Source: Pseudomonadota bacterium
GTDB lineage: Bacteria > Bdellovibrionota > FAC87 > UBA2466
Direction: 5' to 3'
Length of the DNA: 64,000 nt
Assembly: GCA_043718025.1 (NCBI GenBank)
Contig: JAYSWN010000069.1
Location: 3,698 to 67,697, forward strand
In this document: piece by piece, positions 1,666 through 38,620 of the stretch
How positions within the stretch are numbered: position 1 is the first letter of the stretch
How the letters are laid out: each line of letters begins with the position of its first letter
The notes under the pieces: model-generated
Seen by the model: the letters and a program-made list of their open reading frames with translations, nothing else
The model's database searches: none
Told to the model about the DNA's origin: nothing
Position numbers and translations under genes: made by a program

Positions 1666-2127
1666 TTATTTACTCCGTAAATTTTCGATGGCCGCCTTGA
1701 TCTTTCCCATTCCGGAAAGCCCCTTAGAAGCCAAAAATTGAGTCACTTTTTTACCGCCCAAAGGCAAAATCCCCAGGTAGCCATTTCGTAAAAAACCAAA
1801 GATACCCACGTGAAGTTTGGTCCTAATCTTTAAAAGCGGGTCGCTATTAGCCATGAGCTTTAGCAGACCAACGCCGATATCCCCGACATCGTCGGCCTGC
1901 ATTGAGGCCAGCGCTTCAATGCTGGCCTCCCCTAAAAATACGGATACGTCAGGAGCTTGCGGAGGGGCCGCACAAATTTCGACTCCGATAGAGATCTTTT
2001 TCAGGGTGAGGATGGTGGCGTCGGGCAATACAATTTTAACTTCGACCCCGGTGCGTAGCGGGCCCACGGCCTCGCGACAAAGCGGACGATCGAAAAAAGC
2101 TTGAAGTCTCTCTAGCTCTGCGGCCAT
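1666..2127 (-). CDS. SCP2 (sterol-carrier-like) domain protein
   Basis: C-terminal QFLASKGLSGMGKIKAAIENL resembles the SCP2 family signature (QGKLKITGNMGLAMKL). Confidence 0.4.
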   Translation of the reverse strand: MAAELERLQAFFDRPLCREAVGPLRTGVEVKIVLPDATILTLKKISIGVEICAAPPQAPDVSVFLGEASIEALASMQADDVGDIGVGLLKLMANSDPLLKIRTKLHVGIFGFLRNGYLGILPLGGKKVTQFLASKGLSGMGKIKAAIENLRSK

Positions 2128-2167
2128 GACCCGAAGGTATAGCCTCGAAACAGAAGCCCTTCAATTT

Positions 2168-2623
2168 TTATTCGGGAATGGGTAGTTCACACTTAGCACT
2201 TAGGGTCGGAACTTGCTGGAGGAAAGCAGTACCCGTGTTGTCGGTAGGGGTGAGCCAAAGCGTCGAAAATTTTTCTAGCTCTTCTAGAGTAAGCTTGCCC
2301 ACCACAAACCCGCTACCAATCTTGAGTAGCTCAACCGCGTGATCTAGGGCCTTAACTTCTGGAGCCTGGCTGACAACGTGCACCTGAATAGTCGATGTGG
2401 TGCTGACGGTAGTTGCGGGAAGAACTGCCACTTCGAAAATATTTTTGGTTTCAGTCTCCAAAACCAGCACCTCGAAAGTTCCGAGGCTTCCTACGCAAAC
2501 GGTTTGGCCGGTTCGGGCCTCCGATGCCAACGGCATAACGCCGCTAGCCACTTTACCGTTCATTTTGGCGCAAGAAGCGAAGGTGAGAAGTAGAAACCAG
2601 AAAAAGGGGGAAAATCGCTGCAT
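2168..2623 (-). CDS. Hypothetical lipoprotein
   Basis: Signal peptide with lipobox (LLLTFASC). No recognisable domain. Confidence 0.5.
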   Translation of the reverse strand: MQRFSPFFWFLLLTFASCAKMNGKVASGVMPLASEARTGQTVCVGSLGTFEVLVLETETKNIFEVAVLPATTVSTTSTIQVHVVSQAPEVKALDHAVELLKIGSGFVVGKLTLEELEKFSTLWLTPTDNTGTAFLQQVPTLSAKCELPIPE

Positions 2624-2836
2624 GCCCCTAACTAGAGCAGGGGCTATGCCAGCGCCTACGGCCTCAATTTTACTTGCCGCCTTGTGAGCCTTGAAAACGA
2701 GTTAATCACGAACCGCTGGAAAAATTAAATTCAACTGTTAATACAGATAGTTAATTAGCTGTATACCGTTAGTGCACAGACCGCAGAATCGTATGCTTTT
2801 TCAACAATTTTTAGGCTCAAATTTAGCGCACTAAAC

Positions 2837-4243
2837 TTAGACAGCTTTTTTGATCGGGTCCGTGGCCTCTTTACCAGCCTGACCCCGCCGAGTTTGGTAG
2901 GTGAGCTCTTCGCTGCCAAGCACCATACGGTCCGACCACTCCACACCTTGCATAAAAGAGTGATCTTGGTTGGACACTTCGTATTTCCACGCGCCAAAAC
3001 GGCCACGGCTATAAAGACCGTGTTTTTCCAACTCTGGCTGGACGCGGTTCAAAATCGAGTCACGCTCAAGCGATGGCACCGGGTATCCGTACGGCGCGCG
3101 AAATTGAAATTGGCTGACAATCTCATCGCGCGACGAGATTAGGCCGGTAGTGCGGCAACCTTCGATTGTTTCCTGGATCAAAGTGTTGGGGTCAACCGGT
3201 TTGTACTTCGATTCTGAAACCTCAAGCATCAAAGACCACTGGTTTTTAGGATCGGGAACGTTGTTCGGCGAATAGTGGGAAAAAACCGTAACCCGATAAA
3301 ACGGACAATTTGCTTCGGGAAAGTACATCCAGCATTTTTTGGAAAGAGCGGCGGGAATTTTCCCTTTAAGCCCCAGTCCAATCACATTCGTTGACGAATG
3401 AAAAAGCTGGTTCGCCATTTTAGTCACCTGTGGATCCAGCCCCTTCACCTTTTCGCAAAACTGGTCGAGCGGCATGGTGTTAAGCAGTTCGGTGTAACCA
3501 ATGGTGCGGCCATCTTTTAAAGAAACCAACTTGGCTTTTGGATCGATACCGGTAACCACCGAGCCGGTAAGAATGCGATCGCGCCCCACTCGATTCGCCA
3601 CGCTTTCCCAAATCGAACCGGTGCCGCCATTTTTTGGAAAATGAAACGTGTTGTTCGGGCCCCACGAGACGTCGGCCTTTTGCTGAATAATATTTCCCAA
3701 AATCCGTTTCACATCCGGAACGCTGACTCTTTGACCAATCCAGCCATAAGACATGAGTTCGGGCGGCGTGGCCCACACTTTAAAATTGTAGGGCAACATA
3801 AAAATATCGGCGACCCCTTGCCCGAAAGAGGCCAGAATCCATTCCCTAAAATTGGCCGGCTTTTCGGCGCCGGGCTTGATGGTAAGTAATGGCTCCACGC
3901 ACTTCCAGGTGTCTTCCTGAGGGAGGTAGCGCAAATTATTTTGGAACGGATAGGGCACAAAGCGATCTTTGACCCAAACCCAGCTCTCCCGTTCGTGGTG
4001 AAGCCATTCTTTCCGCGGAACGGCCGTTTCCATTGCCTCATCAAAGTAGGTGTAGTGCGAAAACTGGACGTGACCACCGATGTCCCACACAAACCCTTTC
4101 TTATCGGTAATGCTTTTTGCGAGGCCGCCGACCTGAGGATCACTTTCTAAAATCACAAAATCGGTGATGCCGTGGTCAAGTAGGCGAATGGCGGCGCCCA
4201 GGCCAGTGGGTCCGGCGCCGATGATTACGTAGTTTTTTTTCAT
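2837..4243 (-). CDS. glf: FAD-dependent UDP-galactopyranose mutase, eukaryote-type (long ~470-510 aa form)
   Basis: N-terminal Rossmann motif VIIGAGPTGLGAA. Blocks that I recall as conserved in Aspergillus/Leishmania UGM are present: DIGGHVQFSHYTYFDE, PYPFQNNL, MLPYNFKVWA, KCWMYFPEANCPFYRVTVFSHYSP and SRGRFGAWKYEVSNQDHSF. Confidence 0.75.
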   Translation of the reverse strand: MKKNYVIIGAGPTGLGAAIRLLDHGITDFVILESDPQVGGLAKSITDKKGFVWDIGGHVQFSHYTYFDEAMETAVPRKEWLHHERESWVWVKDRFVPYPFQNNLRYLPQEDTWKCVEPLLTIKPGAEKPANFREWILASFGQGVADIFMLPYNFKVWATPPELMSYGWIGQRVSVPDVKRILGNIIQQKADVSWGPNNTFHFPKNGGTGSIWESVANRVGRDRILTGSVVTGIDPKAKLVSLKDGRTIGYTELLNTMPLDQFCEKVKGLDPQVTKMANQLFHSSTNVIGLGLKGKIPAALSKKCWMYFPEANCPFYRVTVFSHYSPNNVPDPKNQWSLMLEVSESKYKPVDPNTLIQETIEGCRTTGLISSRDEIVSQFQFRAPYGYPVPSLERDSILNRVQPELEKHGLYSRGRFGAWKYEVSNQDHSFMQGVEWSDRMVLGSEELTYQTRRGQAGKEATDPIKKAV

Positions 4244-4256
4244 GAACAGGTTTCTG

Positions 4257-5045
4257 TTAGGCAGAGGCTTTTTCAGCCCGCTCGGTATTTTTAGGAATAG
4301 GGAGTTCCGCTAAATGCTTTTTCCACACCGGTGCAGCACGACGAAAGGCCCGAATCTCACTAAAGCACCGGTTGCACACATCGAACAGACGTCGGTTAAG
4401 GGTGACCACCCCGGTTCGGCGTTCCCGGTGTGAAACGGGCATTTCCAGAAGGGTGCCCTTCGACTTAGCGGCCAAGATCGATAAGAAAATGTTAGGAATA
4501 AATACCCCGCGCGGCACCAGCGTCAAAAGACCGGCAAGAAAACGAGACTGCATCAAGCGAAACGGCACATTGGCATCGCGAATTTCAGCGCCAAAAAATA
4601 CGAGCAATAAGACCGCATTGAGTCTTGAAATCACTATCCGCACCAAGGGGTCATGGCGCACTTGACGGTACCCGAGAATAAAAGGGGCTTCGTACCGGGC
4701 ATCCCACAGCTTGCCAAAATCTTCGTGGTTAAATTGATCGTCACTATCGGTTTGAAAAACAAACTCGGGCCCGAGTCGCAACGCCTGCTCGTAGCCATTT
4801 CGCACCGCCTTGCCGTGGCCGGCGTTCTCCTGATGAACCACTTTTAAGCGGTGTTCCTTACGCGCCATCGCGTTCAAGACTTCGGCGGTATTATCGCGGG
4901 AGCCATCGTTGACGATGAGAAGTATCCCGTCGTAGGCCGACGCCACGCTTAACCAAGCGCGGGCAACCTTCTCAATGCACGCCGCTTCGTTGTAGGCCGG
5001 CATGACGATCACTAGATTTGGCGCGTTATTTTCTTGAAGTTTCAT
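4257..5045 (-). CDS. Family 2 glycosyltransferase of the polyprenol-phosphate sugar synthase type (Dpm1/GtrB/ArnC-like)
   Basis: GT-A fold N-terminus: VIVMPAYNEA, then the DGSRD (DxD-like) motif and the QTDSDDQ acidic motif. It lies immediately upstream of glf in a probable two-gene operon. Confidence 0.8.
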   Translation of the reverse strand: MKLQENNAPNLVIVMPAYNEAACIEKVARAWLSVASAYDGILLIVNDGSRDNTAEVLNAMARKEHRLKVVHQENAGHGKAVRNGYEQALRLGPEFVFQTDSDDQFNHEDFGKLWDARYEAPFILGYRQVRHDPLVRIVISRLNAVLLLVFFGAEIRDANVPFRLMQSRFLAGLLTLVPRGVFIPNIFLSILAAKSKGTLLEMPVSHRERRTGVVTLNRRLFDVCNRCFSEIRAFRRAAPVWKKHLAELPIPKNTERAEKASA

Positions 5046-5141
5046 TACGTTTATCGCTCCGTAAAATCTCGTAACGTTCCTAAGTTTATTGCAGAAACAT
5101 TCCGTTAAGTAAGAAACGAACCTCGGTAAAATAAAACCCTT

Positions 5142-7112
5142 ATGCAGTCCTTAACTCCGCATTCCGAACTCCCTACAAATCCAGCGGCATCGTTGCTGAG
5201 ACCCAAGCAGGGGCTAAAAGCGCTTGCCCTATTGATTCTATTTTTGGGAATTGGATTGCGAAGTGTGAATCTTGGAGTTCGTCCGTTACACCACGACGAG
5301 TCAATCCATGCGACGTTCAGCGCTCAGTGGGCCGAATCTCCAGATCGATCATTCTACAAGTACGACCCCACGTATCACGGGCCGTTTTTATATTGTATCA
5401 CCCGTTGGATTTTTCCACTCGTTGGCATCGGCACCGCCGAGGCCCGGCTGTTTCCCCTTTTGTTTGGTCTCTTAAGCTTGTTCTCGTCGTTGCTATTCTG
5501 CCGCTGGATCGGCGTGGCGGGAGCGGCGGTAACCTTTTCACTTCTCGCACTCAGCCCACTGATGGTCTACTACTCACGCTTTCTTGCTCACGACATGCCG
5601 AGCCTCTTTTTTGCCTCGCTCATGGCTTACGGCGTTCTTCGATTCTACGATGGCGTCGCAAACAAAAATTTTCGTGAGGTTCGTAATGCATTTCTGCTGA
5701 CGGCGGTGGCGCTCGGAGTGCTCTTTTCAGTAAAGACCGTGGCCGTACTCTATGCGTTTATCTTTCTCACTTTTTTTGGCTTCGAACTGGCTTTACGTAA
5801 GTGGAGCCAACAAACTGCATTCTGGCCAATTGAGTGGAAAGCTTTTTCCCTCTGGGCAATGCCGGCCATCCTCGGCATTTTAAGCTTTTCAGTGGCATAC
5901 GGAATTTTTCAAACTTCATTCTTCAATAATCCGGCGGCCTTTTTCGACGGCATCCTCGGAAAAAATTTATCCTACTGGTGGAATCAGCATAAAATTGAAC
6001 GACTGGTGGGACCCACCACTTTTCACCTTAGAAGTTTACTGCTGCACGAATTCCCCGCGTGCTTGATCCTAAGCATCGCCCTATTCCGTATCACCCTGCG
6101 TTGGCGGCATGGAAAATGGGCGTTAGCGGCGCTATTCGTTCTTTTTTTGGCCACCGTACCTTTTTCTTGGAGTCTAGAGCGCGACCTTCCCGGCTTTTTG
6201 CTCTCTTTATTCAAAGCGGCAAAGATGAAATCGTCGCCCGCCATTTTTCTCTACTCAATGTGTTTTGTGTTTGGAATTTTGGGCAGCTATCAACTGTGGA
6301 AAGAAAAACGCTTGCCGACCGCATTTTTAAACTATTGGACCTTCGCTTCGCTAGCCATTTACAGTTACGCCGGCGAAAAAGCGCCTTGGCTTACTCTGCA
6401 CGTTGCCTTTCCGGCGGTACTATTGTGCGGAGGCCTCCTTTCTCAACGCTTCACCGAAATGGCCGCCGCATTTAGACTATCGTGGCGGCTTCCGCTCGCT
6501 AGGCGCGTTGTGGCCGCCTCCTTTTTACTTTTACTTCTGTACCAAACACGCCTGGCCTATTTCGTTTCGCACGTGACCGCGGGCAAACCTACCGATCTTT
6601 TAAGTCAGGTGCACAACAGCGAAGATGTAAATCGCGTTTTAAATTGGATGCAACGCGAAGCCTTTGAGTCTGGCGAAAAAAATGAAGGCCTCACCATCGC
6701 CCTTGCTGGCAATGTAACCTGGGCGTTCTATTTCAAGTTCATTGAATTTGGATTCAAAAAGTTCGTTCTCGACGCTAAACAGGTAACCGGCAACGAGCGC
6801 TTTATTGTTAGTGACGAAGAAAACTCCAAGGCACTATCGGCCAAACTAGAGCCGTTGGGTTACCAAAAGATCCAGTACACCCACTCCGGATGGTGGGTAC
6901 CCGAACATAGTAAAGTGGGCTGGGGTGATTGGGTTGAATATGCCCTGTTTCGAAAACCAACGGGGGCGGTGGGAACCACAAAAATGTTTGTTTTTCACAA
7001 GCCAGCCGTCCATCCGACGCTTGCGCCCGTTCCGGCCTCCTCCCCGGGGGTTACCACGATTACCGGCCCACTGCGCGACACGGCCGCCAAAACCGTTTTG
7101 CCCACAAAATGA
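5142..7112 (+). CDS. Polytopic membrane protein resembling GT-C glycosyltransferases (PMT_2/ArnT-like N-terminus; resembles the TIGR03663 family)
   Basis: More than ten predicted TM helices. The first periplasmic loop carries HHDESIHA (the DE dipeptide) and TYHGPFLY (the HGP tripeptide), the hallmarks I recall for TIGR03663. Its stop overlaps the start of the next gene (ATGA). Confidence 0.65.
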   Translation: MQSLTPHSELPTNPAASLLRPKQGLKALALLILFLGIGLRSVNLGVRPLHHDESIHATFSAQWAESPDRSFYKYDPTYHGPFLYCITRWIFPLVGIGTAEARLFPLLFGLLSLFSSLLFCRWIGVAGAAVTFSLLALSPLMVYYSRFLAHDMPSLFFASLMAYGVLRFYDGVANKNFREVRNAFLLTAVALGVLFSVKTVAVLYAFIFLTFFGFELALRKWSQQTAFWPIEWKAFSLWAMPAILGILSFSVAYGIFQTSFFNNPAAFFDGILGKNLSYWWNQHKIERLVGPTTFHLRSLLLHEFPACLILSIALFRITLRWRHGKWALAALFVLFLATVPFSWSLERDLPGFLLSLFKAAKMKSSPAIFLYSMCFVFGILGSYQLWKEKRLPTAFLNYWTFASLAIYSYAGEKAPWLTLHVAFPAVLLCGGLLSQRFTEMAAAFRLSWRLPLARRVVAASFLLLLLYQTRLAYFVSHVTAGKPTDLLSQVHNSEDVNRVLNWMQREAFESGEKNEGLTIALAGNVTWAFYFKFIEFGFKKFVLDAKQVTGNERFIVSDEENSKALSAKLEPLGYQKIQYTHSGWWVPEHSKVGWGDWVEYALFRKPTGAVGTTKMFVFHKPAVHPTLAPVPASSPGVTTITGPLRDTAAKTVLPTK

Positions 7113-9238
7113 ACGCCATTTTTCAACACCTCTTCGGCATTCTGGGTTGGTCGGCGTTATCGCTTATTTTTGGCGCCGCCTGGTTTCCCTTGTTTGCGGC
7201 ACGCCTCTCACCTGACTTAGCCTGGCCGCTGTGCCGGTTGAGTGCCACCATTCTAGTTACCAGCTTTCATCTGTGGCCTGCCTTTTTGGGACGCGTTGCG
7301 CTTACTCCCTGGATTACGCTAGCTATCGTGGCGGTCATCGCCATCGGCACTCATTCATTCACGCGAATAACCGTAAAAGAAAATCTAAAACGTTTTTTTT
7401 CGAAAGAGAATTTGCGGCACGAAGGCTTTATTCTTGGTGTTTGTTTTCTGTTTTTACTGATCGTGCTGTTCATCCCCAACGTCGCGAGCTCGGGCGAGCG
7501 ACTGCGCGATACCGGTTATTGGGTTGCGCTCAACACCCAGAAGAAATTTCCGCTCCTTGACCCCTGGCTATCCGGAGTGAGCGTTCCTTACTATCTGCTG
7601 GGATACTTGGCCGACTTGGAAGTGTTTCAATTTTTGCCGGTCTCAACCCTTATCCAATATAACTTAGGATTGATTGTCGCCCCCGCGCTCTACGCGTTTG
7701 CCTTACGCATGTTTTTTCGTTTGGTCTGGCCGGGCTCCAGGCTGGCCGGAGCGGCAGCGATGTGCCTACTGCTGGCCTGCAATTTTCGTAGCGTGGAGCA
7801 GGCCATCTCCCATATTTTTAGAAATGCCCCCTTTCAGTTCTGGGACTCTTCACGCGTTATTCCGGGAACGATCAACGAGTTCCCTCTCTGGACTGCTTCT
7901 TTGGGAGACTTACACGCCCATCTAATGAGTTTGTGGATTTTGCCAACCCTATTAGCGGTAGGAATCTACTTCCTATTCTTGAAACAGAAAGAAAGGGGAC
8001 TCCCTCAAGGTTTCTCCTTAGCTGAGCTAAGCATTTTTTCCTTTTTGACTTCGTGGTCCTACGGCATGAACACCTGGGAATTTCCGATTATCATTGCGGT
8101 GAGTCTTATTTCTATCGTGGGTAGCAGCCGTAATCAGGGTAAAAAACAGATCCTAAAATATTTGGCGTTCTTCGGGCTGGCCACGATGGTGCTTTGTCTA
8201 CCCTACGCCCTAACTTCGGCTAGCGGCCCCACCTCATTTTCATTCGTTAACCAAAGAACAAGCGCCTGGCCGATGTTTCAGGTCTTTGGTCTTTTCTTTA
8301 TCCCGCTCATGACTTTGAGCGCGAAAAGAGCCTACGACTCCGGAAAGAGAGAGTTGTTGGCGGCAATGGGACTGGCGGTGACTTTAATCTTCATTCTAGA
8401 CTCAGGGCTGGCCATGGTTACTACGGTTAGCTTCTTTCTCGGTACGACGCTTCTTTGGCGTCGGGAGAGTGAACGGATATTGGCGTTAATGGCCTACGGC
8501 GGGCTCTTACTCGTTGGATTTTGCGAGGTGGCCCACCTAAAAGATGCCTTCGGCGGTGATCTGGCCCGCATGAACACGGTGTTCAAATTTTACGTTCCCG
8601 CATTTACGTTGTTGGGAGTTTCGGCATTGCTGGCCTGGAAAGAGCTGCTGCCTTTATTTTCGACAACTCGGTTACAATGGTGCGCATTCGGCGGTTTAGC
8701 GTTTTGGTTAGTGGCCAGCAGTTCATATTTGGCCTTCGGATTGCGAAGCCGCACCAACGGTTTCCGGGTGCCGGCAAACTTCGATGGCTATGGCGAGCTG
8801 CGCAACTATTCCCCCGACGACGCCGTCGTGATCAACTGGATGGCCGAAGAAGTAAGACGGGGCGAGCTGAAGGGGACTTTGCTTGAGGTTATTGGCGGGG
8901 CCTACAGTTGGACCGGTCGGGCCGCCTCATTTACTGGTCTTGAAACGTACGCCGCGTGGGAAGGTTATAGCTACTGGTCTCACACCGGAAACGACGGTTT
9001 AATGCGAAGTCGCAGCAAAACAGCAAAAATGATTTTTGACGGCAGTTACTTCAACGCCGCGCCGTCCTGTGGCGATTTCACCGAAAAACTCCGCCAGTTG
9101 AAAATCAATTACGTCTTCGTGGGCAAAGAAATGAAGACTAACGTTGCTCCCTATACGAGAGATAAAATGGACACGTGCCTACTCCCTCTTCGGCGCCAAG
9201 GCATCGCCGCCCTGTACTCCGTTCCCGCGACCCGTTAA
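7109..9238 (+). CDS. Large polytopic membrane protein, 'YYY-domain' type (resembles TIGR03662/DUF2298), partner of the upstream GT-C-like protein
   Basis: 709 aa, highly hydrophobic with many TM segments. VPYYLLGY tyrosine motif, plus the conserved-looking INEFPLWTASLGDLHAHL loop. It is translationally coupled to the preceding gene. Confidence 0.55.
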   Translation: MNAIFQHLFGILGWSALSLIFGAAWFPLFAARLSPDLAWPLCRLSATILVTSFHLWPAFLGRVALTPWITLAIVAVIAIGTHSFTRITVKENLKRFFSKENLRHEGFILGVCFLFLLIVLFIPNVASSGERLRDTGYWVALNTQKKFPLLDPWLSGVSVPYYLLGYLADLEVFQFLPVSTLIQYNLGLIVAPALYAFALRMFFRLVWPGSRLAGAAAMCLLLACNFRSVEQAISHIFRNAPFQFWDSSRVIPGTINEFPLWTASLGDLHAHLMSLWILPTLLAVGIYFLFLKQKERGLPQGFSLAELSIFSFLTSWSYGMNTWEFPIIIAVSLISIVGSSRNQGKKQILKYLAFFGLATMVLCLPYALTSASGPTSFSFVNQRTSAWPMFQVFGLFFIPLMTLSAKRAYDSGKRELLAAMGLAVTLIFILDSGLAMVTTVSFFLGTTLLWRRESERILALMAYGGLLLVGFCEVAHLKDAFGGDLARMNTVFKFYVPAFTLLGVSALLAWKELLPLFSTTRLQWCAFGGLAFWLVASSSYLAFGLRSRTNGFRVPANFDGYGELRNYSPDDAVVINWMAEEVRRGELKGTLLEVIGGAYSWTGRAASFTGLETYAAWEGYSYWSHTGNDGLMRSRSKTAKMIFDGSYFNAAPSCGDFTEKLRQLKINYVFVGKEMKTNVAPYTRDKMDTCLLPLRRQGIAALYSVPATR

Positions 9239-9309
9239 GAAACGCCCCACTTTCTTCATTTAGCGCACTTGGCGCAGGAGCTATGACAAGGATAGAATAG
9301 AAAACCACC

Positions 9310-10659
9310 ATGCGATCTCTCATCAAGACAATAGCCGGTTGGGGTAACTTTCCTGCCTATCCGTGCCGCCTTTTTCGTGCCGAACGGCTTCGCGAACAAA
9401 AAGAGATTCTTTGCACTCCAAACGAAAGTTTCATCGCCCGCGGTTTGGGCCGGGCCTACGGCGATGCCGCCATCAATGCGGATCATGGCGTCGTACTGCA
9501 AGAACGCTTCAACCGTTTCCTTGCTTTTGATCAAGCCAGCGGAATGCTGGAATGTGAAGCCGGGGTTTCCTTTGAAGATCTGCTTCAAACTTTTGTGCCC
9601 CGTGGCTTTTTTCCGCCGACCACGCCGGGAACCAAGTTTATCACCGTGGGTGGCGCCGTTGCCGCCGACGTTCACGGCAAAAACCACCACTGCGATGGCA
9701 GTTTTTCCAAATCAGTTGATAGTTTTCGCTTGATGCTGGCCAATGGCGACGTAGTCACGGCGTCGCGCACCGACCATGCCGATCTCTTCTGGGCCACCAT
9801 CGGCGGCATGGGACTTACCGGGATTCTTACCTCGGTAAAATTTCGCCTGAGCAAAATCCCCTCCTCACGCCTCAATGTGCATTTTGAAAAAACCAAGAGC
9901 CTAGACGAAACATTGGCGCGTTTCACTACCACCGATGCGCAATTCGCCAATTCTGTGTGCTGGTTAGATACCGTGGCGTCCGGCAGCAAGCTGGGTCGAG
10001 CCGTGATGATGTTAGGAAATTTCGCCACGCCGGCTGAGTTGGGCGGAATGAAACGATTGAACGAAGTGTCTTTTTCAAAAAAGCGCAATGTTCCCTTTTT
10101 TCTTCCGGAGTTTGTTTTGAATTCGCTTAGCGTCAGCCTTTTTAACCGGGCTTACTACGCTCACTTTTCAAACGGCAGCAATAAAGTACAGACCATCGAC
10201 CAATACTTTTACCCGCTCGACGCGATCGACAACTGGAACCGTGGCTACGGCAAGTCGGGTTTTTTGCAATTTCAAGCGGTGTGGCCCAATGAGCAATCGG
10301 CCGCGGCACTGAAGAAGACCTTAGAAGAGATTCAGAAAGCGGGAGCCAACGCCTTTCTCGCGGTTTTAAAAACGATGGGGGCCAAGAGCGAAGGCATGCT
10401 GTCCTTTCCAATCGCTGGCCACACCTTAGCGCTCGACATTCCTTATCGCGGTAAAAAAACGGAAGCGTTGGCAAAACGTTTGAATGCCCTCACGTTAGAT
10501 TTTGGCGGAAGAGTTTATTTAGCTAAAGACGCTTTTCTTACCCGCGAGCAGACCCAGAAAATGTATCCCGACTTCGATAAGTTTTTAGCCGTGAAACACA
10601 AGTACGATCCTAACGGCCGCTTCGCCTCATCGCTTTCGAAAAGACTGGGTCTGGTGTAA
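9310..10659 (+). CDS. dprE1: Decaprenylphosphoryl-beta-D-ribose 2'-oxidase homologue (FAD-binding, DprE1 family)
   Basis: Matches my memory of M. tuberculosis DprE1 along its length: RGLGRAYGD, ITVGGAVAADVHGKNHHCDGSF, LFWATIGGMGLTGI, KLGRA, QYFYPLD..WNRGYG..GFLQFQ, LSFPIAG, LDFGGRVYLAKD, RFASSLSKRLGL. Confidence 0.85.
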   Translation: MRSLIKTIAGWGNFPAYPCRLFRAERLREQKEILCTPNESFIARGLGRAYGDAAINADHGVVLQERFNRFLAFDQASGMLECEAGVSFEDLLQTFVPRGFFPPTTPGTKFITVGGAVAADVHGKNHHCDGSFSKSVDSFRLMLANGDVVTASRTDHADLFWATIGGMGLTGILTSVKFRLSKIPSSRLNVHFEKTKSLDETLARFTTTDAQFANSVCWLDTVASGSKLGRAVMMLGNFATPAELGGMKRLNEVSFSKKRNVPFFLPEFVLNSLSVSLFNRAYYAHFSNGSNKVQTIDQYFYPLDAIDNWNRGYGKSGFLQFQAVWPNEQSAAALKKTLEEIQKAGANAFLAVLKTMGAKSEGMLSFPIAGHTLALDIPYRGKKTEALAKRLNALTLDFGGRVYLAKDAFLTREQTQKMYPDFDKFLAVKHKYDPNGRFASSLSKRLGLV

Positions 10660-11402
10660 TGGGAAACGATTCAAACTTTGTCATGGTGGTCGGCGCTACT
10701 TCGGGAATGGGCCAGGCCGTAGCACGAGCGTTTGCAGCCCAAAAGAGAAACCTTTTTTTGCTCGGCCGCGACATGCTTGCGCTCGAGACAATGGTAACGG
10801 ATCTCACTATACGATACGACGTCGTGGTGAAGGCGTTCTCCTTTGAAGCTACTGATTTCCAAGCCCACGGGGCACTACTAAATGACGAGCTCTTGGGGCA
10901 GGTTCAGGGCGCGGTACTTTGCCAAGGTTACCTTAATGATAACGCCGCCTCGCGTGTGGACTTTTTCGAATGGAAGACCACGCTCGACGTAAATTTCACG
11001 TCGGTGGTCTCCTGCCTTACGCCCATGGCCAATTTTTTTGAAAAGAGAAAAAGCGGGTTTCTCTGCGTAGTTGGCTCGGTGGCGGGGGTGCGCGGACGCC
11101 AAAGCAATTACGTATATGGTTCGGCTAAGGCCGCGGTTTCTATTTTTTTAGAGGGTCTCCGCCATCGGCTATTTAAGTCTAATGTTTCGGTCACCGAAAT
11201 ACGGCCCGGATTCGTCGACACCAGTATGACGTTTGGTATGCCCGGCCTATTCCTTGTGGCTTCACCGGAAAAAGTGGCCGCCGATATTTTGAAGGCCATC
11301 GAGAAAAAAAGCGCGGTTCGCTATACGCCCTTCTTTTGGTTGGGCATTTTAACGATCATCCGCTGCCTTCCCCGCTTCCTCTTCCACCGCTCAAAACTCT
11401 AA
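10659..11402 (+). CDS. dprE2: Decaprenylphosphoryl-2-keto-pentofuranose reductase homologue (SDR, DprE2 family)
   Basis: SDR Gly motif VVGATSGMGQAV and catalytic YGSAKAA. The C-terminal half aligns with Mtb DprE2 (NYVYGS.KA....F.EGL......V.V.EIRPG.V.T.M). The start overlaps the dprE1 stop (TAATG). Confidence 0.8.
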   Translation: MGNDSNFVMVVGATSGMGQAVARAFAAQKRNLFLLGRDMLALETMVTDLTIRYDVVVKAFSFEATDFQAHGALLNDELLGQVQGAVLCQGYLNDNAASRVDFFEWKTTLDVNFTSVVSCLTPMANFFEKRKSGFLCVVGSVAGVRGRQSNYVYGSAKAAVSIFLEGLRHRLFKSNVSVTEIRPGFVDTSMTFGMPGLFLVASPEKVAADILKAIEKKSAVRYTPFFWLGILTIIRCLPRFLFHRSKL

Positions 11403-11456
11403 GTGGATCGCAGCGATTTCCCCCGACATGCCCTTAAATTAGGCTTTTAACCCGGT

Positions 11457-11517
11457 AAATGGAATCCAACGCCCTTCGCCCCCGGAGGGAGGGGGGCCCA
11501 AAATCCAAGTGCGGTAG
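11457..11517. repeat. 61-bp GC-hairpin dispersed element, copy 1
   Basis: The sequence aaatggaatccaacgcccttcgcccccggagggaggggggcccaaaatccaagtgcggtag recurs at 33898-33960 with about 56/61 identical positions. It contains a C5/G6 stem. It sits between the convergent dprE2 and aldehyde dehydrogenase genes. Confidence 0.7.
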
Positions 11518-11541
11518 CTAACCCGTGAACGTCGTAAACCC

Positions 11542-12948
11542 TCACCCCATTATTCTGCGCAGCCACCCGAAGTTCTTTTCGTACGGAGGGTAACGAAGAG
11601 GCAGATCAAACCAGGTGGCGCGACTCAGCACACTCTTACGGTGAGAGAAAGTTTCGAAAGAAAACCAGCCGTGGTATCCACCCATGCCACTGGCGCCAAC
11701 GCCGCCGAAAGGCAAACGCGGGTTGCTCAAATGCACGAGAGTATCGTTCATGCAGCCGCCACCAAATGAAACAGAATTTACGGCCTTGGCCCGATGCTCA
11801 GGATTTGTGCCAAAATAATAAAATGCCAACGGCTTTTCGCGTTCGTTTACAAAACGAATAGCCTCGTCAAAATTCTCGTACTCGATCAACGGCAGGAGAG
11901 GACCAAAAATCTCTTCGGTCATCAATGGCATATCGAGGCGGGGTTGTCCGACGACCGTGGGCGAAATAAATCGCGCGCCCTTGTCGGTTTTTCCACCGAG
12001 CAAAATGTTTCCCTGTCCCAGCAACCCTTCTAAGCGCTGAAAGTGACGATCGGTGATGATGCGCGAGTACTCCGGGCTAGCTTGAATATCCGAAGTAAAA
12101 AACCGGTCTAGATTTGCCGAGATGCGTTCGACCACCCTTTTCTGCCAGCCCTTGGGGATGAGCAAATAGTCGGGCGCCACGCACGTCTGCCCGGCGTTAA
12201 AATACTTACCCCAGGTGATTCGTCGCATGGCGACGTCGAGATCGGCATCGGTATCTAAAAGGCAGGGGCTCTTTCCCCCCAGCTCCAAAGTCACCGGAGT
12301 TAAATGATTGGCCGCCGCCTGCATTACAATTTTTCCAACGTTGGTGCTGCCAGTATAAAAAATGTGATCCCAGCGTTCTTTGAGTAGCGCCGTCGAAATA
12401 TCCACCGCCCCCTCAATTGCCCACACAAATTCAGGATCGAACGTTTTTGCGATAATCTCGGCCACCACCTTCGATGTTTCCGGAGCCAACTCCGAGGGCT
12501 TCACCACCGCGCAGTTTCCGGCGCAAATGGCGCCCACCAGCGGCGCCATCGCCAACTGAAAAGGGTAATTCCAAGGAGAGATAATTAGAGTCGTGCCGAG
12601 TGGTTCGTAGTGAATGTGGCTTTTTCCCACCGCCAGGGTCATTGGCGTGGCCACCCGCTTGGGCTTCATCCAACTTTTTAGGTGTTTTTTGGTGAAGCGA
12701 ATCTCTTCGTACAGAAAACCCACCTCGCCCAAAAAACTCTCGGCCATCGACTTACCCAAGTCCGCTTTCAAAGCCTTAAAAATCTGCGGCTCCGCCGCCC
12801 GAATGGCGTGCATCAGCCTATCGAGCTGGGCCATGCGAAACTCGTAAGATTTGGTCTTCTGACTTAGGAAAAAGGCACGCTGTTTAGCGAGCCTCTCAGG
12901 AATCGAATTTGCCGTTACCATGCTGACCTCACGAAAAGATGATACCAC
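11542..12948 (-). CDS. NAD(P)-dependent aldehyde dehydrogenase (class 3-like)
   Basis: ALDH motifs ELGGKSP, EEIFGP and the catalytic-Cys region GQTCVAPDY. 468 aa. Confidence 0.9.
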   Translation of the reverse strand: MVSSFREVSMVTANSIPERLAKQRAFFLSQKTKSYEFRMAQLDRLMHAIRAAEPQIFKALKADLGKSMAESFLGEVGFLYEEIRFTKKHLKSWMKPKRVATPMTLAVGKSHIHYEPLGTTLIISPWNYPFQLAMAPLVGAICAGNCAVVKPSELAPETSKVVAEIIAKTFDPEFVWAIEGAVDISTALLKERWDHIFYTGSTNVGKIVMQAAANHLTPVTLELGGKSPCLLDTDADLDVAMRRITWGKYFNAGQTCVAPDYLLIPKGWQKRVVERISANLDRFFTSDIQASPEYSRIITDRHFQRLEGLLGQGNILLGGKTDKGARFISPTVVGQPRLDMPLMTEEIFGPLLPLIEYENFDEAIRFVNEREKPLAFYYFGTNPEHRAKAVNSVSFGGGCMNDTLVHLSNPRLPFGGVGASGMGGYHGWFSFETFSHRKSVLSRATWFDLPLRYPPYEKNFGWLRRIMG

Positions 12949-13007
12949 CCTAACCGGCTTGCGGAGCCCTTGTTTTAGCCCCAGGTTTAGGCTAAAAACG
13001 CCCCACT

Positions 13008-13982
13008 ATGGCAGACAAAACTATCTCTAAGTTCATTGAGCACCATTTCCGACATTTCAACGCTGCGGCGTTGGTTGATGCCGCAAAGGGGTACCAAAAG
13101 CATTTAGACGCCGGCGGCACCATGTTTATGACCTTAGCGGGGGCCATGAGCACCGGGGAGTTGGGTCTGTCGCTGGCCGAGATGATTCGCAAAGGAAAAG
13201 TGCACGCCATTTGTTGCACCGGCGCGAACCTAGAAGAGGATGTTTTTAACCTCGTCGCCCATAAATCTTACAAACGCATTCCTCATTACCGCGACCTCAC
13301 GCCGGCCGATGAAACCGAGTTGTTAAGCCATCATTTAAATAGGGTAACCGACACCTGTATTCCCGAAGAAGAGGCGATTCGCAAACTTGAGCACGTCATC
13401 ATTGAAGAGTGGACCAACGCCTCTGAAAGGGGTGAGCGGTATTTACCGCACGAGTACTTCTACAAGGTCTTGCTTTCGGGAAAACTAAAGTCCGAATACG
13501 AAATTGACCCGGCTAACAGCTGGATGCTGGCCGCCGCCGAACGTAATTTGCCAATCATTGTTCCGGGCTGGGAAGACTCAACGTTAGGAAACATTTTTGC
13601 GGCGCGCTGCATGGAAGGCAAACTCAAGGTCAATGCCATGAAATCAGGCATTGAGTACATGATGCAGATGTCAGCCTATTACTTAGAAAACTGCCGTAAG
13701 GGCAAAGGCATCGGTTTTTTTCAAATTGGTGGCGGCATCGCCGGCGATTTTCCGATCTGCGTGGTGCCGATGCTGAATCAAGATCTGCTTAAAGACGTGC
13801 CGGTATGGGCGTACTTTTGCCAAATTAGCGACTCGACCACGAGCTACGGCTCTTACTCGGGCGCGGTGCCCAATGAAAAGATTACCTGGGGCAAGCTCGA
13901 CATCGACACCCCAAAATTTATCATTGAATCGGATGCGTCCATCGTTGCGCCCTTGATCTTTGCCCATGTGTTGGGATGGTAG
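13008..13982 (+). CDS. Deoxyhypusine synthase-like protein (DHS/homospermidine-synthase family)
   Basis: The C-terminal block IGGGIAGDFPI...SYGSYSGAVPNEKITWGKLDID...ESDASIVAPLIFA aligns with the human DHPS segment GGGVVKHHI...DGSDSGARPDEAVSWGKIR...ADASLVFPLLVA. Confidence 0.8.
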   Translation: MADKTISKFIEHHFRHFNAAALVDAAKGYQKHLDAGGTMFMTLAGAMSTGELGLSLAEMIRKGKVHAICCTGANLEEDVFNLVAHKSYKRIPHYRDLTPADETELLSHHLNRVTDTCIPEEEAIRKLEHVIIEEWTNASERGERYLPHEYFYKVLLSGKLKSEYEIDPANSWMLAAAERNLPIIVPGWEDSTLGNIFAARCMEGKLKVNAMKSGIEYMMQMSAYYLENCRKGKGIGFFQIGGGIAGDFPICVVPMLNQDLLKDVPVWAYFCQISDSTTSYGSYSGAVPNEKITWGKLDIDTPKFIIESDASIVAPLIFAHVLGW

Positions 13983-14779
13983 GCCCGGCCCTAGTAGTAA
14001 AAGACCTCATTAAACATTATAAGGGGCGCCAAAAAGTAGAGGCGGTAAATGGCGTTTCGTTTACGGTTAACCCTGGCCAATGCTTTGGGCTTTTGGGTCC
14101 AAATGGCGCCGGTAAATCTACCACCATCAATTGCCTCATCGGCTTTTTTCCGCCCACGTCGGGCTCGGTGCAGGTGATGGGATTCGATGTTCATCACGAA
14201 CCCAAAAAAGCACGACAGCTTTTGGGCGTTTGCCCGCAAGAAGACACCCTAGATACTGACTTTACGGTGCGCGATCAGCTGATCCGTCATGCCACTTTTT
14301 TCCGGATGCCCGCCGCCGACGCCAAACGCCGCGCCGACGAGCTACTTGAGCGATTCGGCCTCAGCGGTAAGGGTAAGGAGTTGGTCGAACGGCTCTCCGG
14401 TGGAATGCGCCGCCGCCTACAAGTGGCGCGGGCATTAATCTCCAGCCCAAAAGTTCTAGTGCTGGATGAACCTACCACCGGCCTAGATCCCGACGCCCGT
14501 CGCACGTTGTGGGACATTTTAGAAGAGTACCGCGCCAAGGGGCTCGCGATCTTACTTACCACCCATTACATGGAAGAGGCCGAGCGCCTCTGCGATCGCA
14601 TTGCCTTGATTAAAGACGGAAAAATTTTAGACGAAAACTCGCCGCGCGCCCTGATCGACAGGCACGTCGCCAAAGAGTGGGTTGAAGAGGAGATCCGCCC
14701 CGGCGTCAAATGGAAACGCCCCGCAAACCTCGAAGACGTCTATTTAACCATTACCGGCAGTAAACTGGCGGAGGCATAA
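13976..14779 (+). CDS. ABC transporter ATP-binding protein (ABC-2 exporter type)
   Basis: Walker A GPNGAGKST, signature LSGGMRRRLQ, Walker B VLVLDEPTTGLD. Overlaps the DHS-like gene by 7 bp. Confidence 0.9.
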   Translation: MVGPALVVKDLIKHYKGRQKVEAVNGVSFTVNPGQCFGLLGPNGAGKSTTINCLIGFFPPTSGSVQVMGFDVHHEPKKARQLLGVCPQEDTLDTDFTVRDQLIRHATFFRMPAADAKRRADELLERFGLSGKGKELVERLSGGMRRRLQVARALISSPKVLVLDEPTTGLDPDARRTLWDILEEYRAKGLAILLTTHYMEEAERLCDRIALIKDGKILDENSPRALIDRHVAKEWVEEEIRPGVKWKRPANLEDVYLTITGSKLAEA

Positions 14780-14781
14780 AA

Positions 14782-15552
14782 ATGGGCGACACTTTTTGGG
14801 CCATTCGGTGCGTGTACTTTCGCTACCTGGCGGTCTTCCGTAAAAATGTTTTATACAGTTTGATGACCACCATCGTGGAACCCCTGCTCTATGTCCTCTC
14901 GTTCGGCTTTGGTCTAGCCACCATGATTCATGAAGTGGGTGTCGGAGACAAAACCATCGGCTACCGCGCCTTTGTGCTCTCGGGCTTCGTCGGCCAGAGC
15001 GTACTTTTTCAGGGTTTTTTCGAGGCGGCCTACGGCGGCTTTGTGCGCATGTACTACCAAAAGATTTTTAAAGCCATGGCCACGACGCCGGTGACGATCG
15101 AAGAGGTCTTGTGGGGAGAGTTAACCTGGGACGCCACTAAGGGTACTCTATCCGCCGGCATGGTTTTGCTCATTGGCAGCCTGCTCGGCGATTTTTCTCC
15201 GTGGGGCGCCGTCGTGCTCTTTCCCCTGTGCTACATTTTTTGCTTTATCTTTGCCGGTCTTGGCCTTTGGGTGTCGTCGCTAGCCACCACGATTGATCAA
15301 CTGGCGTACCCGCAATACCTTTTTGTTTTTCCCATGTTCCTATTCGGCGGTGTTTACTTCCCCATCGATAAGCTGCCCTCATTCGTAAGCAAAGCGGCGT
15401 GGTTTCTCCCGCTTACGCCTTGCTTAGAGATCACGCGAGGACTGCTCTTTGAGGTTTCCATCGCCTGGTATGCCTGGGTGCTGGTGGCCTTTTGGGCCGT
15501 ACTGCTACCTGTCACCTCACACGCGGCGATGAAACGCCGGCTAGTGAAGTAG
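14782..15552 (+). CDS. ABC-2 family transporter permease
   Basis: Six hydrophobic segments. Immediately downstream of the ABC ATPase. Confidence 0.7.
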   Translation: MGDTFWAIRCVYFRYLAVFRKNVLYSLMTTIVEPLLYVLSFGFGLATMIHEVGVGDKTIGYRAFVLSGFVGQSVLFQGFFEAAYGGFVRMYYQKIFKAMATTPVTIEEVLWGELTWDATKGTLSAGMVLLIGSLLGDFSPWGAVVLFPLCYIFCFIFAGLGLWVSSLATTIDQLAYPQYLFVFPMFLFGGVYFPIDKLPSFVSKAAWFLPLTPCLEITRGLLFEVSIAWYAWVLVAFWAVLLPVTSHAAMKRRLVK

Positions 15553-37699: not shown

Positions 37700-38620
37700 C
37701 TAGCGCCGTTTTCGGTAGGCTTCAGCCGACAACCGGGTAATTCGATCGGCCAGGTAAAAACCCACCCCAACCCAGATAAGGGTAAAAGCAAGTAGCCGTG
37801 TGTTGTCTAAAGGCTCTTGATAAACCAAGTAGCCCACTAAGAACTGTAACGTTGGCGCCACAAACTGCATCATCCCCAACAAACTGTAAGGTAGAGACTG
37901 CGCGGCCACCGAAAATAGATAAAGTGGTAACCCGGTAACCACTCCGGAGCCAATCAGCAACGCCACGTAGTAGGGGGTTAAGGCCACGTCGCTATGCGAA
38001 CGCAAATAAATTGCCGCAATCAGCGCCGGCACCACGCCCGCCGCCCCTTCCATCGCCGATCCTAAGCTTGGTTCCACGGCGATCACTTTTTTAACCACGC
38101 CATAAGCGCAAAACGAAGACGCCAGGGTCAGGGCAATCCACGGAAATTGGCTCGCCATGCCGATCTGAATCAAGATACCCGCCGCCGCAAAGGTGAGCGC
38201 CAGTTTCAGTGGCCAAGGAAACGATTCTTTAAAAAAGATCACTCCTACCGCCACGCTCATCAACGGGTTTAAAAAATAGGCGAGACTGGTTTCCAGTACC
38301 CTCCCCGAATTCACGCCGTAGATATAAATGCCCCAGTTCATGGCAATGAGTGCCGCCGCCAGAATCGATAGGCGAATTTGTCGGGTGGTTAGGGGTAGTC
38401 GAGCCGTTCCCCGCCGGTAGCGCACGTAAAGATAAACGAAGCTGTAAAAAACAAACGACCAGAGCACCCGGTGGGCCAAAATCTCAACCGCCGGCAAGGC
38501 CTTAAGCAACTTCCAGTAAATGGGAAAGAAGCCCCATAGAAAATAAGAGGTTAAAGCAATATAGACGGCGCGATTTGACGTAGGGTTCATTGAAAGTGCT
38601 GCCGAACGTAGTCGAGTCAC
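37700..38620 (-). CDS. rarD: EamA/RarD-family transporter
   Basis: Ten TM helices. N-terminal LTSYFLWGFFPIYWKLL is typical of RarD. Confidence 0.75.
   Translation of the reverse strand: MTRLRSAALSMNPTSNRAVYIALTSYFLWGFFPIYWKLLKALPAVEILAHRVLWSFVFYSFVYLYVRYRRGTARLPLTTRQIRLSILAAALIAMNWGIYIYGVNSGRVLETSLAYFLNPLMSVAVGVIFFKESFPWPLKLALTFAAAGILIQIGMASQFPWIALTLASSFCAYGVVKKVIAVEPSLGSAMEGAAGVVPALIAAIYLRSHSDVALTPYYVALLIGSGVVTGLPLYLFSVAAQSLPYSLLGMMQFVAPTLQFLVGYLVYQEPLDNTRLLAFTLIWVGVGFYLADRITRLSAEAYRKRR

Follow-up and report, generated by a model that had tools for sequence, protein, structure and literature searches.

A probable furanose-directed glycan-modification module built around TIGR03663 and DUF2298 membrane proteins in an uncultured bacterium

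The 64-kb stretch of DNA analysed here (hereafter the window) has a GC content of about 51% and comes from an uncultured bacterium whose nearest relatives, at 55-61% identity, are metagenome-assembled genomes (MAGs) labelled Bdellovibrionota, "Deltaproteobacteria" or Pseudomonadota. It carries on the forward strand two adjacent genes for membrane proteins, the first encoding a protein of 656 amino acids (aa) of the TIGR03663/Agl23 family, predicted to have a GT-C fold (5142..7112), and the second a 709-aa DUF2298 (Chlor_Arch_YYY) protein, predicted to be a second GT-C-fold module (7109..9238). The stop codon of the former and the start codon of the latter lie within an ATGA at 7109-7112, a 4-bp overlap that points to translational coupling of the two genes. 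On the reverse strand, a gene encoding a 262-aa GT2 glycosyltransferase of the polyprenyl-phosphate class (ArnC/GtrB/DPMS-like; 4257..5045) diverges from the TIGR03663 gene, and the 96 bp between them (5046..5141) are presumed to be a promoter region shared by a GT2-mutase operon and a GT-C operon; the gene for a 468-aa eukaryotic-type UDP-galactopyranose mutase (UGM; 2837..4243) follows that of the GT2 downstream on the same strand after 13 bp. On the other side, 71 bp downstream of the DUF2298 gene, starts a forward-strand gene for a 449-aa DprE1-like FAD-dependent polyprenyl-phospho-sugar 2-oxidase (9310..10659), which shares 1 nt with the gene for a 247-aa DprE2-like short-chain dehydrogenase (SDR; 10659..11402, forward strand), presumably its 2-keto reductase partner. 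A scan of positions 2000-13100 for consensus promoters and terminators gave counts not above those of shuffled sequence. An earlier note on this DNA had described the two open reading frames (ORFs) of the pair, their DE/HGP and VPYYLLGY motifs and the ATGA overlap exactly as we found them, and had rightly placed a polyprenyl-phosphate-type GT2 upstream and DprE1-like and SDR genes downstream; it had missed the mutase identity of the ORF at 2837-4243. From comparative analysis and structure prediction only, we consider it reasonably probable that the region 2837-11402 constitutes one glycan-modification module, which would follow the logic of a lipid-linked donor used by GT-C enzymes and would be specialised for furanose sugars.

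Using hidden Markov model searches against NCBIfam, we found that the 656-aa protein matches TIGR03663 with 241.9 bits against a cut-off of 126.25, over model positions 3-423 of 435, which bears out the assignment proposed in the earlier note. A Pfam search with this protein returned no match and it has no MIR domain; PMT_2/PMT domains were found by Pfam in its homologues. The motif HHDESIH occupies residues 50-56 (with D52 and E53) and YHGP residues 78-81. Across 25 TIGR03663 homologues, down to 22% identity, no variation is seen at D52, E53, Y72, Y74, D75, P76, H79, G80, R102, K198, K413, P415 and W416, and P81 is conserved to at least 90%, so that the DE and HGP residues are conserved in homologues as had been expected; D151, within an AHDM motif, is nearly invariant. 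The AlphaFold2 model (pLDDT 87.6, pTM 0.87) has a membrane domain bearing the DE motif in the first extracytoplasmic loop (EL1) and a C-terminal periplasmic alpha/beta domain. When this model was compared with the PDB by Foldseek, which was the fold check suggested for it, the matches at probability 1.0 were GT-C enzymes only (AglB, ArnT, STT3, Pmt4, ALG9/12, PglB, AftD), and the MurJ and MATE flippases appeared only at noise level. By sequence, the family profile aligns to ArnT (E=2.6e-7), placing D52/E53 on ArnT D55/E56, D151 on ArnT D158 and the HGP segment on ArnT E84-K85-P-P; in the ArnT structure work, D55/E56, E84-K85 and D158 are reported to be required for ArnT function. The TIGR03663 protein is predicted to be a GT-C-fold glycosyltransferase.

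Homologues of 850-1,126 aa (P0021, P0027, P0028, P0030, P0035, P0037) carry C-terminal NHL/SGL beta-propeller domains, which may be periplasmic acceptor-binding modules. At one further locus (L083:6351-7808, forward strand), a 485-aa protein that is not a DUF2298 protein is translationally coupled downstream of a member of a 40%-identical TIGR03663 paralogue clade; it has no Pfam or NCBIfam match and no homologue in the other loci examined.

The 709-aa protein matches Pfam DUF2298 with 207.6 bits (cut-off 27.8) and TIGR03662 over its full length (5-697 of 727; E=2.6e-83), with a score of 280.9 bits that is marginally under the cut-off of 300.25; the TIGR03662 assignment made in the earlier note therefore holds as to extent and Pfam family, and falls just short as to score. 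Other stand-alone copies located beside TIGR03663 are also below this cut-off (249 bits in L058), while copies fused to another domain reach 405-444 bits. The VPYYLLGY motif lies at residues 159-166; among 37 DUF2298 homologues Y162 never varies and conservation at Y163 and G165 is at least 90%, and where the Tyr run of the consensus NYYYFGH begins the window protein has Pro (P-Y-Y instead of Y-Y-Y). Residues invariant in the same set include E130, P148, D151, W153, Y162, N225, R249, E257, H269 and R487, among others. E130 and D151, together with D134 (at least 90% conserved), belong to the loop after the fourth helix, which itself follows a Lys/Arg-rich (cytoplasmic) loop; these acidic residues have no residue-level alignment to a solved enzyme. 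The predicted structure is a GT-C fold resembling AftA, AftB and AftD. A DUF2298 profile found no match among PDB sequences, and a profile-profile comparison of TIGR03663 with DUF2298 detected no homology (probability 6%). Because both proteins are predicted to have a GT-C fold and their profiles show no homology, the pair would consist of two different GT-C-fold modules, not of an enzyme with an accessory subunit; of the two-component GT-C transferase suggested by the earlier note, the GT-C chemistry is retained, but the pair is better seen as two coupled GT-C modules, the partner being itself GT-C. The fold, together with the adjacent polyprenyl-phosphate GT2, suggests that both membrane proteins use a polyprenyl-phosphate-linked donor.

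The conservation of the pair was studied in 160 loci, 80 of them centred on TIGR03663 (GTDB genomes) and 80 on DUF2298 (metagenomes, many of these loci being only 2-7 kb long). DUF2298 was found within 10 kb of TIGR03663 in 28 of the 80 genome loci and as its immediate neighbour in 21, so the frequent adjacency that had been claimed is seen in many unrelated genomes, and TIGR03663 adjoins DUF2298 in at least 33 of the 80 metagenome loci. The two genes are tightly packed in both gene orders and also convergently. One close relative, L082, has the layout of the window down to the 4-bp overlap, except that an ABC-2 transporter has been inserted ahead of DprE1, and the contig of L103 holds the full set: mutase, GT2, DUF2298, a GT-C::DUF2298 fusion, TIGR03663 and then DprE2/DprE1. 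The visible L103 cluster, flanked by the contig end 386 bp upstream of the mutase gene and, past DprE1, by unrelated Trk genes, contains no phosphoribosyltransferase.

Fusions in which a PMT_2-type GT-C domain forms the N-terminus and DUF2298/TIGR03662 follows occur in more than 20 loci; the best NCBIfam match of this N-terminal domain is a weak one to TIGR03663 (24-27 bits), and in L044 the PMT_2-type GT-C domain and DUF2298 are separate genes. The description of the pair as coupled GT-C modules fits these fusions of a distant TIGR03663-like GT-C domain to DUF2298. The fusion proteins, of 1,250-1,640 aa with a full TIGR03662 domain, are encoded at L058:10584-14594 (reverse strand), L053:4980-9896 (forward strand), L016, L021, L048 and most Acidobacteriota loci, and those of Acidobacteriota also carry a C-terminal NHL beta-propeller. 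Direct fusions of TIGR03663 to DUF2298 were not counted, a shared stop-free frame occurring only in L062 and separate frames in its close relative L064 and other Acidobacteriota. The L062 frame (5081-12727, forward strand; about 2,550 codons) spans a PMT_2-like domain, DUF2298 and TIGR03663; it could reflect a triple fusion, but equally a fault of the assembly or a frameshift.

The genes divergent from the pair concern donor supply. The mutase aligns over residues 5-451 with the T. cruzi UGM (PDB 4dsg; E=2.2e-143, 482 bits), matches that of A. fumigatus with E about 1e-136 and keeps the GGHV...FSHY and RFGAW.YEV.NQDHSFMQG motifs; with homology as strong as this, we assign to it the supply of UDP-galactofuranose (UDP-Galf). 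It is a bacterial enzyme closer to trypanosomatid and fungal mutases than to the classical bacterial GLF type, and the NCBIfam models that match it (PRK07208 series) are still labelled 'hypothetical protein'. For the GT2, a profile built from 31 orthologues matches ArnC (E=1.2e-34), GtrB (5ekp; 1e-28) and an archaeal DPMS (5mlz; 3.5e-22) over about 225 of its 256 positions, interface-helix region included, while other GT2 enzymes match only its N-terminal, nucleotide-binding half. ArnC is also the best PDB match of the GT2 as a single sequence. The protein has no C-terminal transmembrane helices, its hydrophobic stretches being internal (134-152 and 170-188). These matches place it in the polyprenyl-phosphate glycosyltransferase class, and its product would be polyprenyl-P-Galf.

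An orthologue of this GT2 (at least 80 bits) occurs in 29 of the 80 TIGR03663 loci, within 1.6 kb in 27 of them, and the GT2 family is found in 26 of the 80 DUF2298-centred metagenome loci; the pairing of GT2 with TIGR03663 is the most conserved feature found. Mutase orthologues above 300 bits are present in 15 of the 80 TIGR03663 loci and additionally in L082, L086 and L103, and blocks of GT2, mutase and TIGR03663 recur in Bdellovibrionota (L014, L016, L036, L058, L061). Two loci, L015 and L083, have a prokaryote-type GLF mutase in place of the eukaryote-type enzyme beside the same GT2 family, and because of this exchange we argue that the GT2 consumes the mutase product. In Acidobacteriota, an operon composed of a DPPRS-like UbiA phosphoribosyltransferase (NF008977, 182 bits), the GT2 and the mutase lies near GT-C genes. 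With a mutase in the cluster itself, and mutases, DPPRS-like enzymes or DprE1/E2 in related clusters, the polyprenyl-P-furanose donor first put forward in the earlier note has gained in strength. The DPPRS-like-GT2-mutase operon is found at L053:17407-20499 (reverse strand) and at 12 other loci; in Acidobacteriota it is about 5 kb from TIGR03663/DUF2298, without DprE1/E2, and a GalE/RmlB-like epimerase gene lies between DUF2298 copies in these loci.

The DprE1-like protein matches NF053785 over its full length (429.4 bits, below the cut-off of 500) and M. smegmatis DprE1 (4aut) with E=2.9e-85, and the catalytic Lys of the 'AKD' motif is retained. The Cys that is the target of benzothiazinones in mycobacterial DprE1 is Ala here, and the protein would be predicted to be insensitive to these compounds. 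The DprE2-like protein scores 139.5 bits with NF053786 (cut-off 250) and 256.6 bits with PRK07102 (cut-off 267), and its counterparts are always paired with DprE1 in L082, L086, L087, L103, L113 and L117. The order DUF2298-DprE1-DprE2 recurs in L082, L113 and L117 and, truncated, in L106, the DUF2298 proteins of L113, L117 and L106 being only 23-25% identical to that of the window. A DPPRS-like gene directly abuts DUF2298 in L102 and L123. The distribution of neighbours suggests that the two GT-C proteins divide the work, DUF2298 tracking pentofuranose-type genes (DPPRS-like phosphoribosyltransferases and DprE1/E2) and TIGR03663 tracking the GT2 product.

The surroundings of the cluster were also examined. 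In the window and in related MAGs, a variable glycan island lies between the genes for HGPRT and an aldehyde dehydrogenase. Considered as the ribose-donor enzyme, the product of the Pribosyltran gene at 1122-1664 was ruled out, since it is the housekeeping HGPRT (TIGR01203, 176 bits against 150), and the small ORFs at 594-2623, considered as GtrA-like flippases, were ruled out for having neither transmembrane helices nor a family match. An ABC-2 transporter pair is divergent from DprE1 in the closest relatives of the window (L082:5561-6990, L086:6492-7918, L087:1661-3123) and absent from that place in the window, where a different, NodIJ-like ABC-2 pair at 13976-15552 is syntenic with the second pair of L087. 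A deoxyhypusine-synthase/homospermidine-synthase-like gene (PF01916; 13008-13982, forward strand) is a direct neighbour of an ABC-2 transporter and an aldehyde dehydrogenase, and this arrangement is kept in L087. Between the GT2 and the ABC-2 transporter of L086, a reverse-strand gene (5977-6387) encodes a 136-aa DUF1761 protein that could be a small membrane component, for instance a flippase candidate.

Brought together, these genes would describe the following route. The mutase would convert UDP-galactopyranose into UDP-Galf, a step for which homology is strong, and at the cytoplasmic face the GT2 would load this sugar onto polyprenyl phosphate to give polyprenyl-P-Galf, a product deduced from the enzyme class and from the conserved adjacency to two types of mutase. 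The DprE1/DprE2-like pair would oxidise and then re-reduce the 2-OH of a lipid-linked furanose, yielding a second donor; its substrate could be either what the GT2 makes or a polyprenyl-P-ribofuranose whose synthesis is encoded elsewhere than in the window. The donor would then be flipped, either by the TIGR03663 protein, in keeping with what is claimed for Agl23, or by ABC-2 transporters such as those present in relatives. Finally, in view of the GT-C fold, the conserved ArnT-like residues and the acidic residues conserved in predicted extracytoplasmic loops of both proteins, the TIGR03663 and DUF2298 proteins would transfer furanoses to a periplasmic acceptor, probably one after the other or joined in a complex in the manner of Pmt1-Pmt2 or EmbA-EmbB. 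A bolder version, which we put forward only tentatively, is that many bacteria and archaea would possess polyprenyl-P-Galf, made by a mutase together with an ArnC/GtrB-class GT2, as an undescribed lipid-linked hexofuranose donor, that in some lineages, among them those of the window, L082 and L103, DprE1/DprE2 would epimerise this hexofuranose donor in place of a ribofuranose derived from phosphoribose and so yield a second, perhaps new, lipid-linked sugar, that TIGR03663 and DUF2298 would found two new GT-C families of furanosyltransferases acting outside the cytoplasm, and that the 'flippase' property of Agl23 would be a side activity.

Several observations weigh against a single furanose module and have to be set beside the alternatives. 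No lipid-linked Galf donor was found in the literature searched, and the locus counts given above ignore kinship, related loci being phylogenetically non-independent. As many loci with TIGR03663 and GT2 have no mutase, the TIGR03663 family is not furanose-specific, and the GT2 product that it would follow need not be a furanose. DprE1/E2 occur in none of the 80 TIGR03663-centred loci: their link is to DUF2298, not to TIGR03663. Since L086 and L087 carry DprE1/E2 beside a polyprenyl-P-type GT2 and an ABC-2 transporter without the GT-C pair, the adjacency of DprE1/E2 is in part lineage synteny. Moreover, classical PPPRS clusters (L088) contain DprE1 homologues with about 50% identity, so the canonical ribose substrate would be possible if a PPPRS is encoded elsewhere in the genome; among all ORFs of the window, neither a polytopic protein nor a motif of a UbiA-type phosphoribosyltransferase was detected. 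One alternative is an arabinogalactan-like scheme with two donors, in which DprE1/E2 would make polyprenyl-P-arabinofuranose for DUF2298 from polyprenyl-P-ribofuranose supplied by a phosphoribosyltransferase encoded elsewhere, TIGR03663 would use the GT2 product and Galf would never be epimerised. Such a scheme deserves to be kept in mind, at odds we would put well short of even: L082, L086, L087, L103, L113 and L117, like the window, show no UbiA-type gene, and the visible L103 cluster has the mutase and GT2 but no PPPRS. A simpler view, in which the pair has no functional connection with the genes around it and the adjacency is due to chance or simple lineage synteny, could appeal to the variable island between HGPRT and aldehyde dehydrogenase and to L086 and L087; it is very improbable and already contradicted by conservation, for the same sets of genes are found again, with protein identities of 22-28% and differing gene orders, in Acidobacteriota, Bdellovibrionota, a Halioglobus MAG, an archaeal MAG and unrelated metagenome contigs.

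The function of TIGR03663 itself can be read in another way. The only characterised member of the family, Agl23 of H. hispanica, is described as a flippase, and the family bears the NCBIfam title 'flippase activity-associated protein Agl23', a name that also ends the function-less, 'orphan' status which the earlier note had given to TIGR03663. The window protein could accordingly be a flippase or scramblase of the polyprenyl-P-sugar, with DUF2298 as the sole GT-C transferase and with the GT2 completing a three-component system similar to GtrB/GtrA/GtrC. In published work, lipid-linked M5GN2 was moved across liposome membranes by purified HhAgl23, which also rescued a yeast rft1-delta strain (PMC11182771), although scrambling in liposomes by a polytopic protein is compatible with a transferase function. 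The window offers no other flippase candidate: a dedicated one of the GtrA/GtcA, Wzx or MATE type was not found in its 64 kb, which also counts against the module proposed here, the cluster has no further polytopic protein, and elsewhere in the window there are only an ABC-2 permease (14782-15552) and a multi-helix ORF of unassigned family (37700-38620). The fusions and tight coupling of TIGR03663-like domains to DUF2298 would suit a flippase equally. By contrast, the model is a complete GT-C fold with flippase folds at noise level, an extracytoplasmic loop of TIGR03663 has invariant residues at the positions of the catalytic and phosphate-binding residues of ArnT, 52 of the 80 TIGR03663 loci have no DUF2298 within 10 kb, and many homologues possess large NHL/beta-propeller domains in the periplasm, which one would expect of proteins that bind an acceptor. 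The predicted fold and active site fit a transferase better, and we regard a flippase with DUF2298 as sole transferase as rather unlikely; the transferase and flippase readings of TIGR03663 share one pathway. As for the GT2, mycobacterial GlfT1/2 are also GT2 enzymes and the mutase adjoins it here, so that it could be pictured as a cytoplasmic GlfT-like galactofuranosyltransferase building a galactan from UDP-Galf, to be decorated by the GT-C proteins. With only 262 aa, and with a profile that matches ArnC, GtrB and DPMS over the full length and no GlfT at E<=1e-5, this is highly improbable.

Annotation has long listed TIGR03662 and TIGR03663 as families that occur together and lack an assigned function; their members come from Chloroflexota, Acidobacteriota, Bdellovibrionota, haloarchaea and others. 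The present analysis would assign both to the GT-C fold and tie them to a donor-supply set of mutase, polyprenyl-phosphate GT2, DPPRS-like enzyme and DprE1/E2, making of them a concrete and testable pathway. Should polyprenyl-P-Galf prove to exist, the extracytoplasmic route described recently for pentofuranoses would gain a hexofuranose branch, there would be an explanation for an attachment of Galf beyond the cytoplasm, and the flippase annotation propagated by NCBI to the whole Agl23 family would be called into question. Both DprE1 and UGM are drug targets, and unexpected substrates of their homologues are of general interest.

Among known systems, the mycobacterial arabinogalactan pathway (Glf, DprE1/DprE2, Aft/Emb) likewise combines a UDP-galactopyranose mutase, DprE1/E2 and several GT-C furanosyltransferases. 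In mycobacteria, however, UDP-Galf itself is the donor for Galf addition, which takes place in the cytoplasm, and a lipid donor serves arabinofuranose only; the window proteins are not Aft/Emb orthologues, and its DprE1- and DprE2-like proteins are below the NCBIfam equivalog cut-offs. The PMT enzymes, with the Pmt1-Pmt2 heterodimer, have in common with the window the GT-C fold, the DE motif in EL1 and the pairing of two GT-C subunits, but the TIGR03663 protein has neither a Pfam PMT match nor a MIR domain and its partner comes from a different sequence family. The GtrA/GtrB/GtrC, CsbB/GtcA/YfhO and ArnC/ArnT systems also associate a GT2 polyprenyl-phosphate glycosyltransferase with a GT-C transferase; they differ by their pyranose donors, single GT-C and small dedicated flippase, whereas the window has two GT-C modules, furanose-supply genes and no GtrA-like gene. 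In H. hispanica, Agl23 was studied genetically and described as a DolP-hexose flippase, and the purified protein flipped M5GN2-PP-Dol in liposomes (Chen et al. 2024, PMC11182771). Agl22/Agl23 form a similar combination of a GT2 charging polyprenyl (dolichyl) phosphate with a hexose and a TIGR03663-family membrane protein that uses the lipid-linked sugar, but the system is archaeal, its donors are pyranoses (Glc/Gal) and Agl23 is read as a flippase; the text consulted describes no mutase, DprE1/E2 or DUF2298 partner. Finally, the ORF15/14/12 (GT136) of C. youngae constitute an established three-component system for extracytoplasmic pentofuranose addition (Kelly et al. 2024, PMC11127046), in which DprE1/E2 homologues are among the auxiliary epimerases that diversify the donor. 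This system shares with the proposed module a cytoplasmic, lipid-phosphate-linked furanose donor that is flipped and used by a GT-C enzyme (PMC11127046). It differs in that its donor derives from PRPP through a UbiA-type PPPRS and a phosphatase and that a MATE flippase is present, where the window encodes a mutase together with an ArnC/GtrB-type GT2, no PPPRS or MATE protein, and members of two different uncharacterised GT-C families; the presumed GT-C enzyme of the L088 PPPRS cluster (552 aa) has no similarity to the TIGR03663 or DUF2298 protein.

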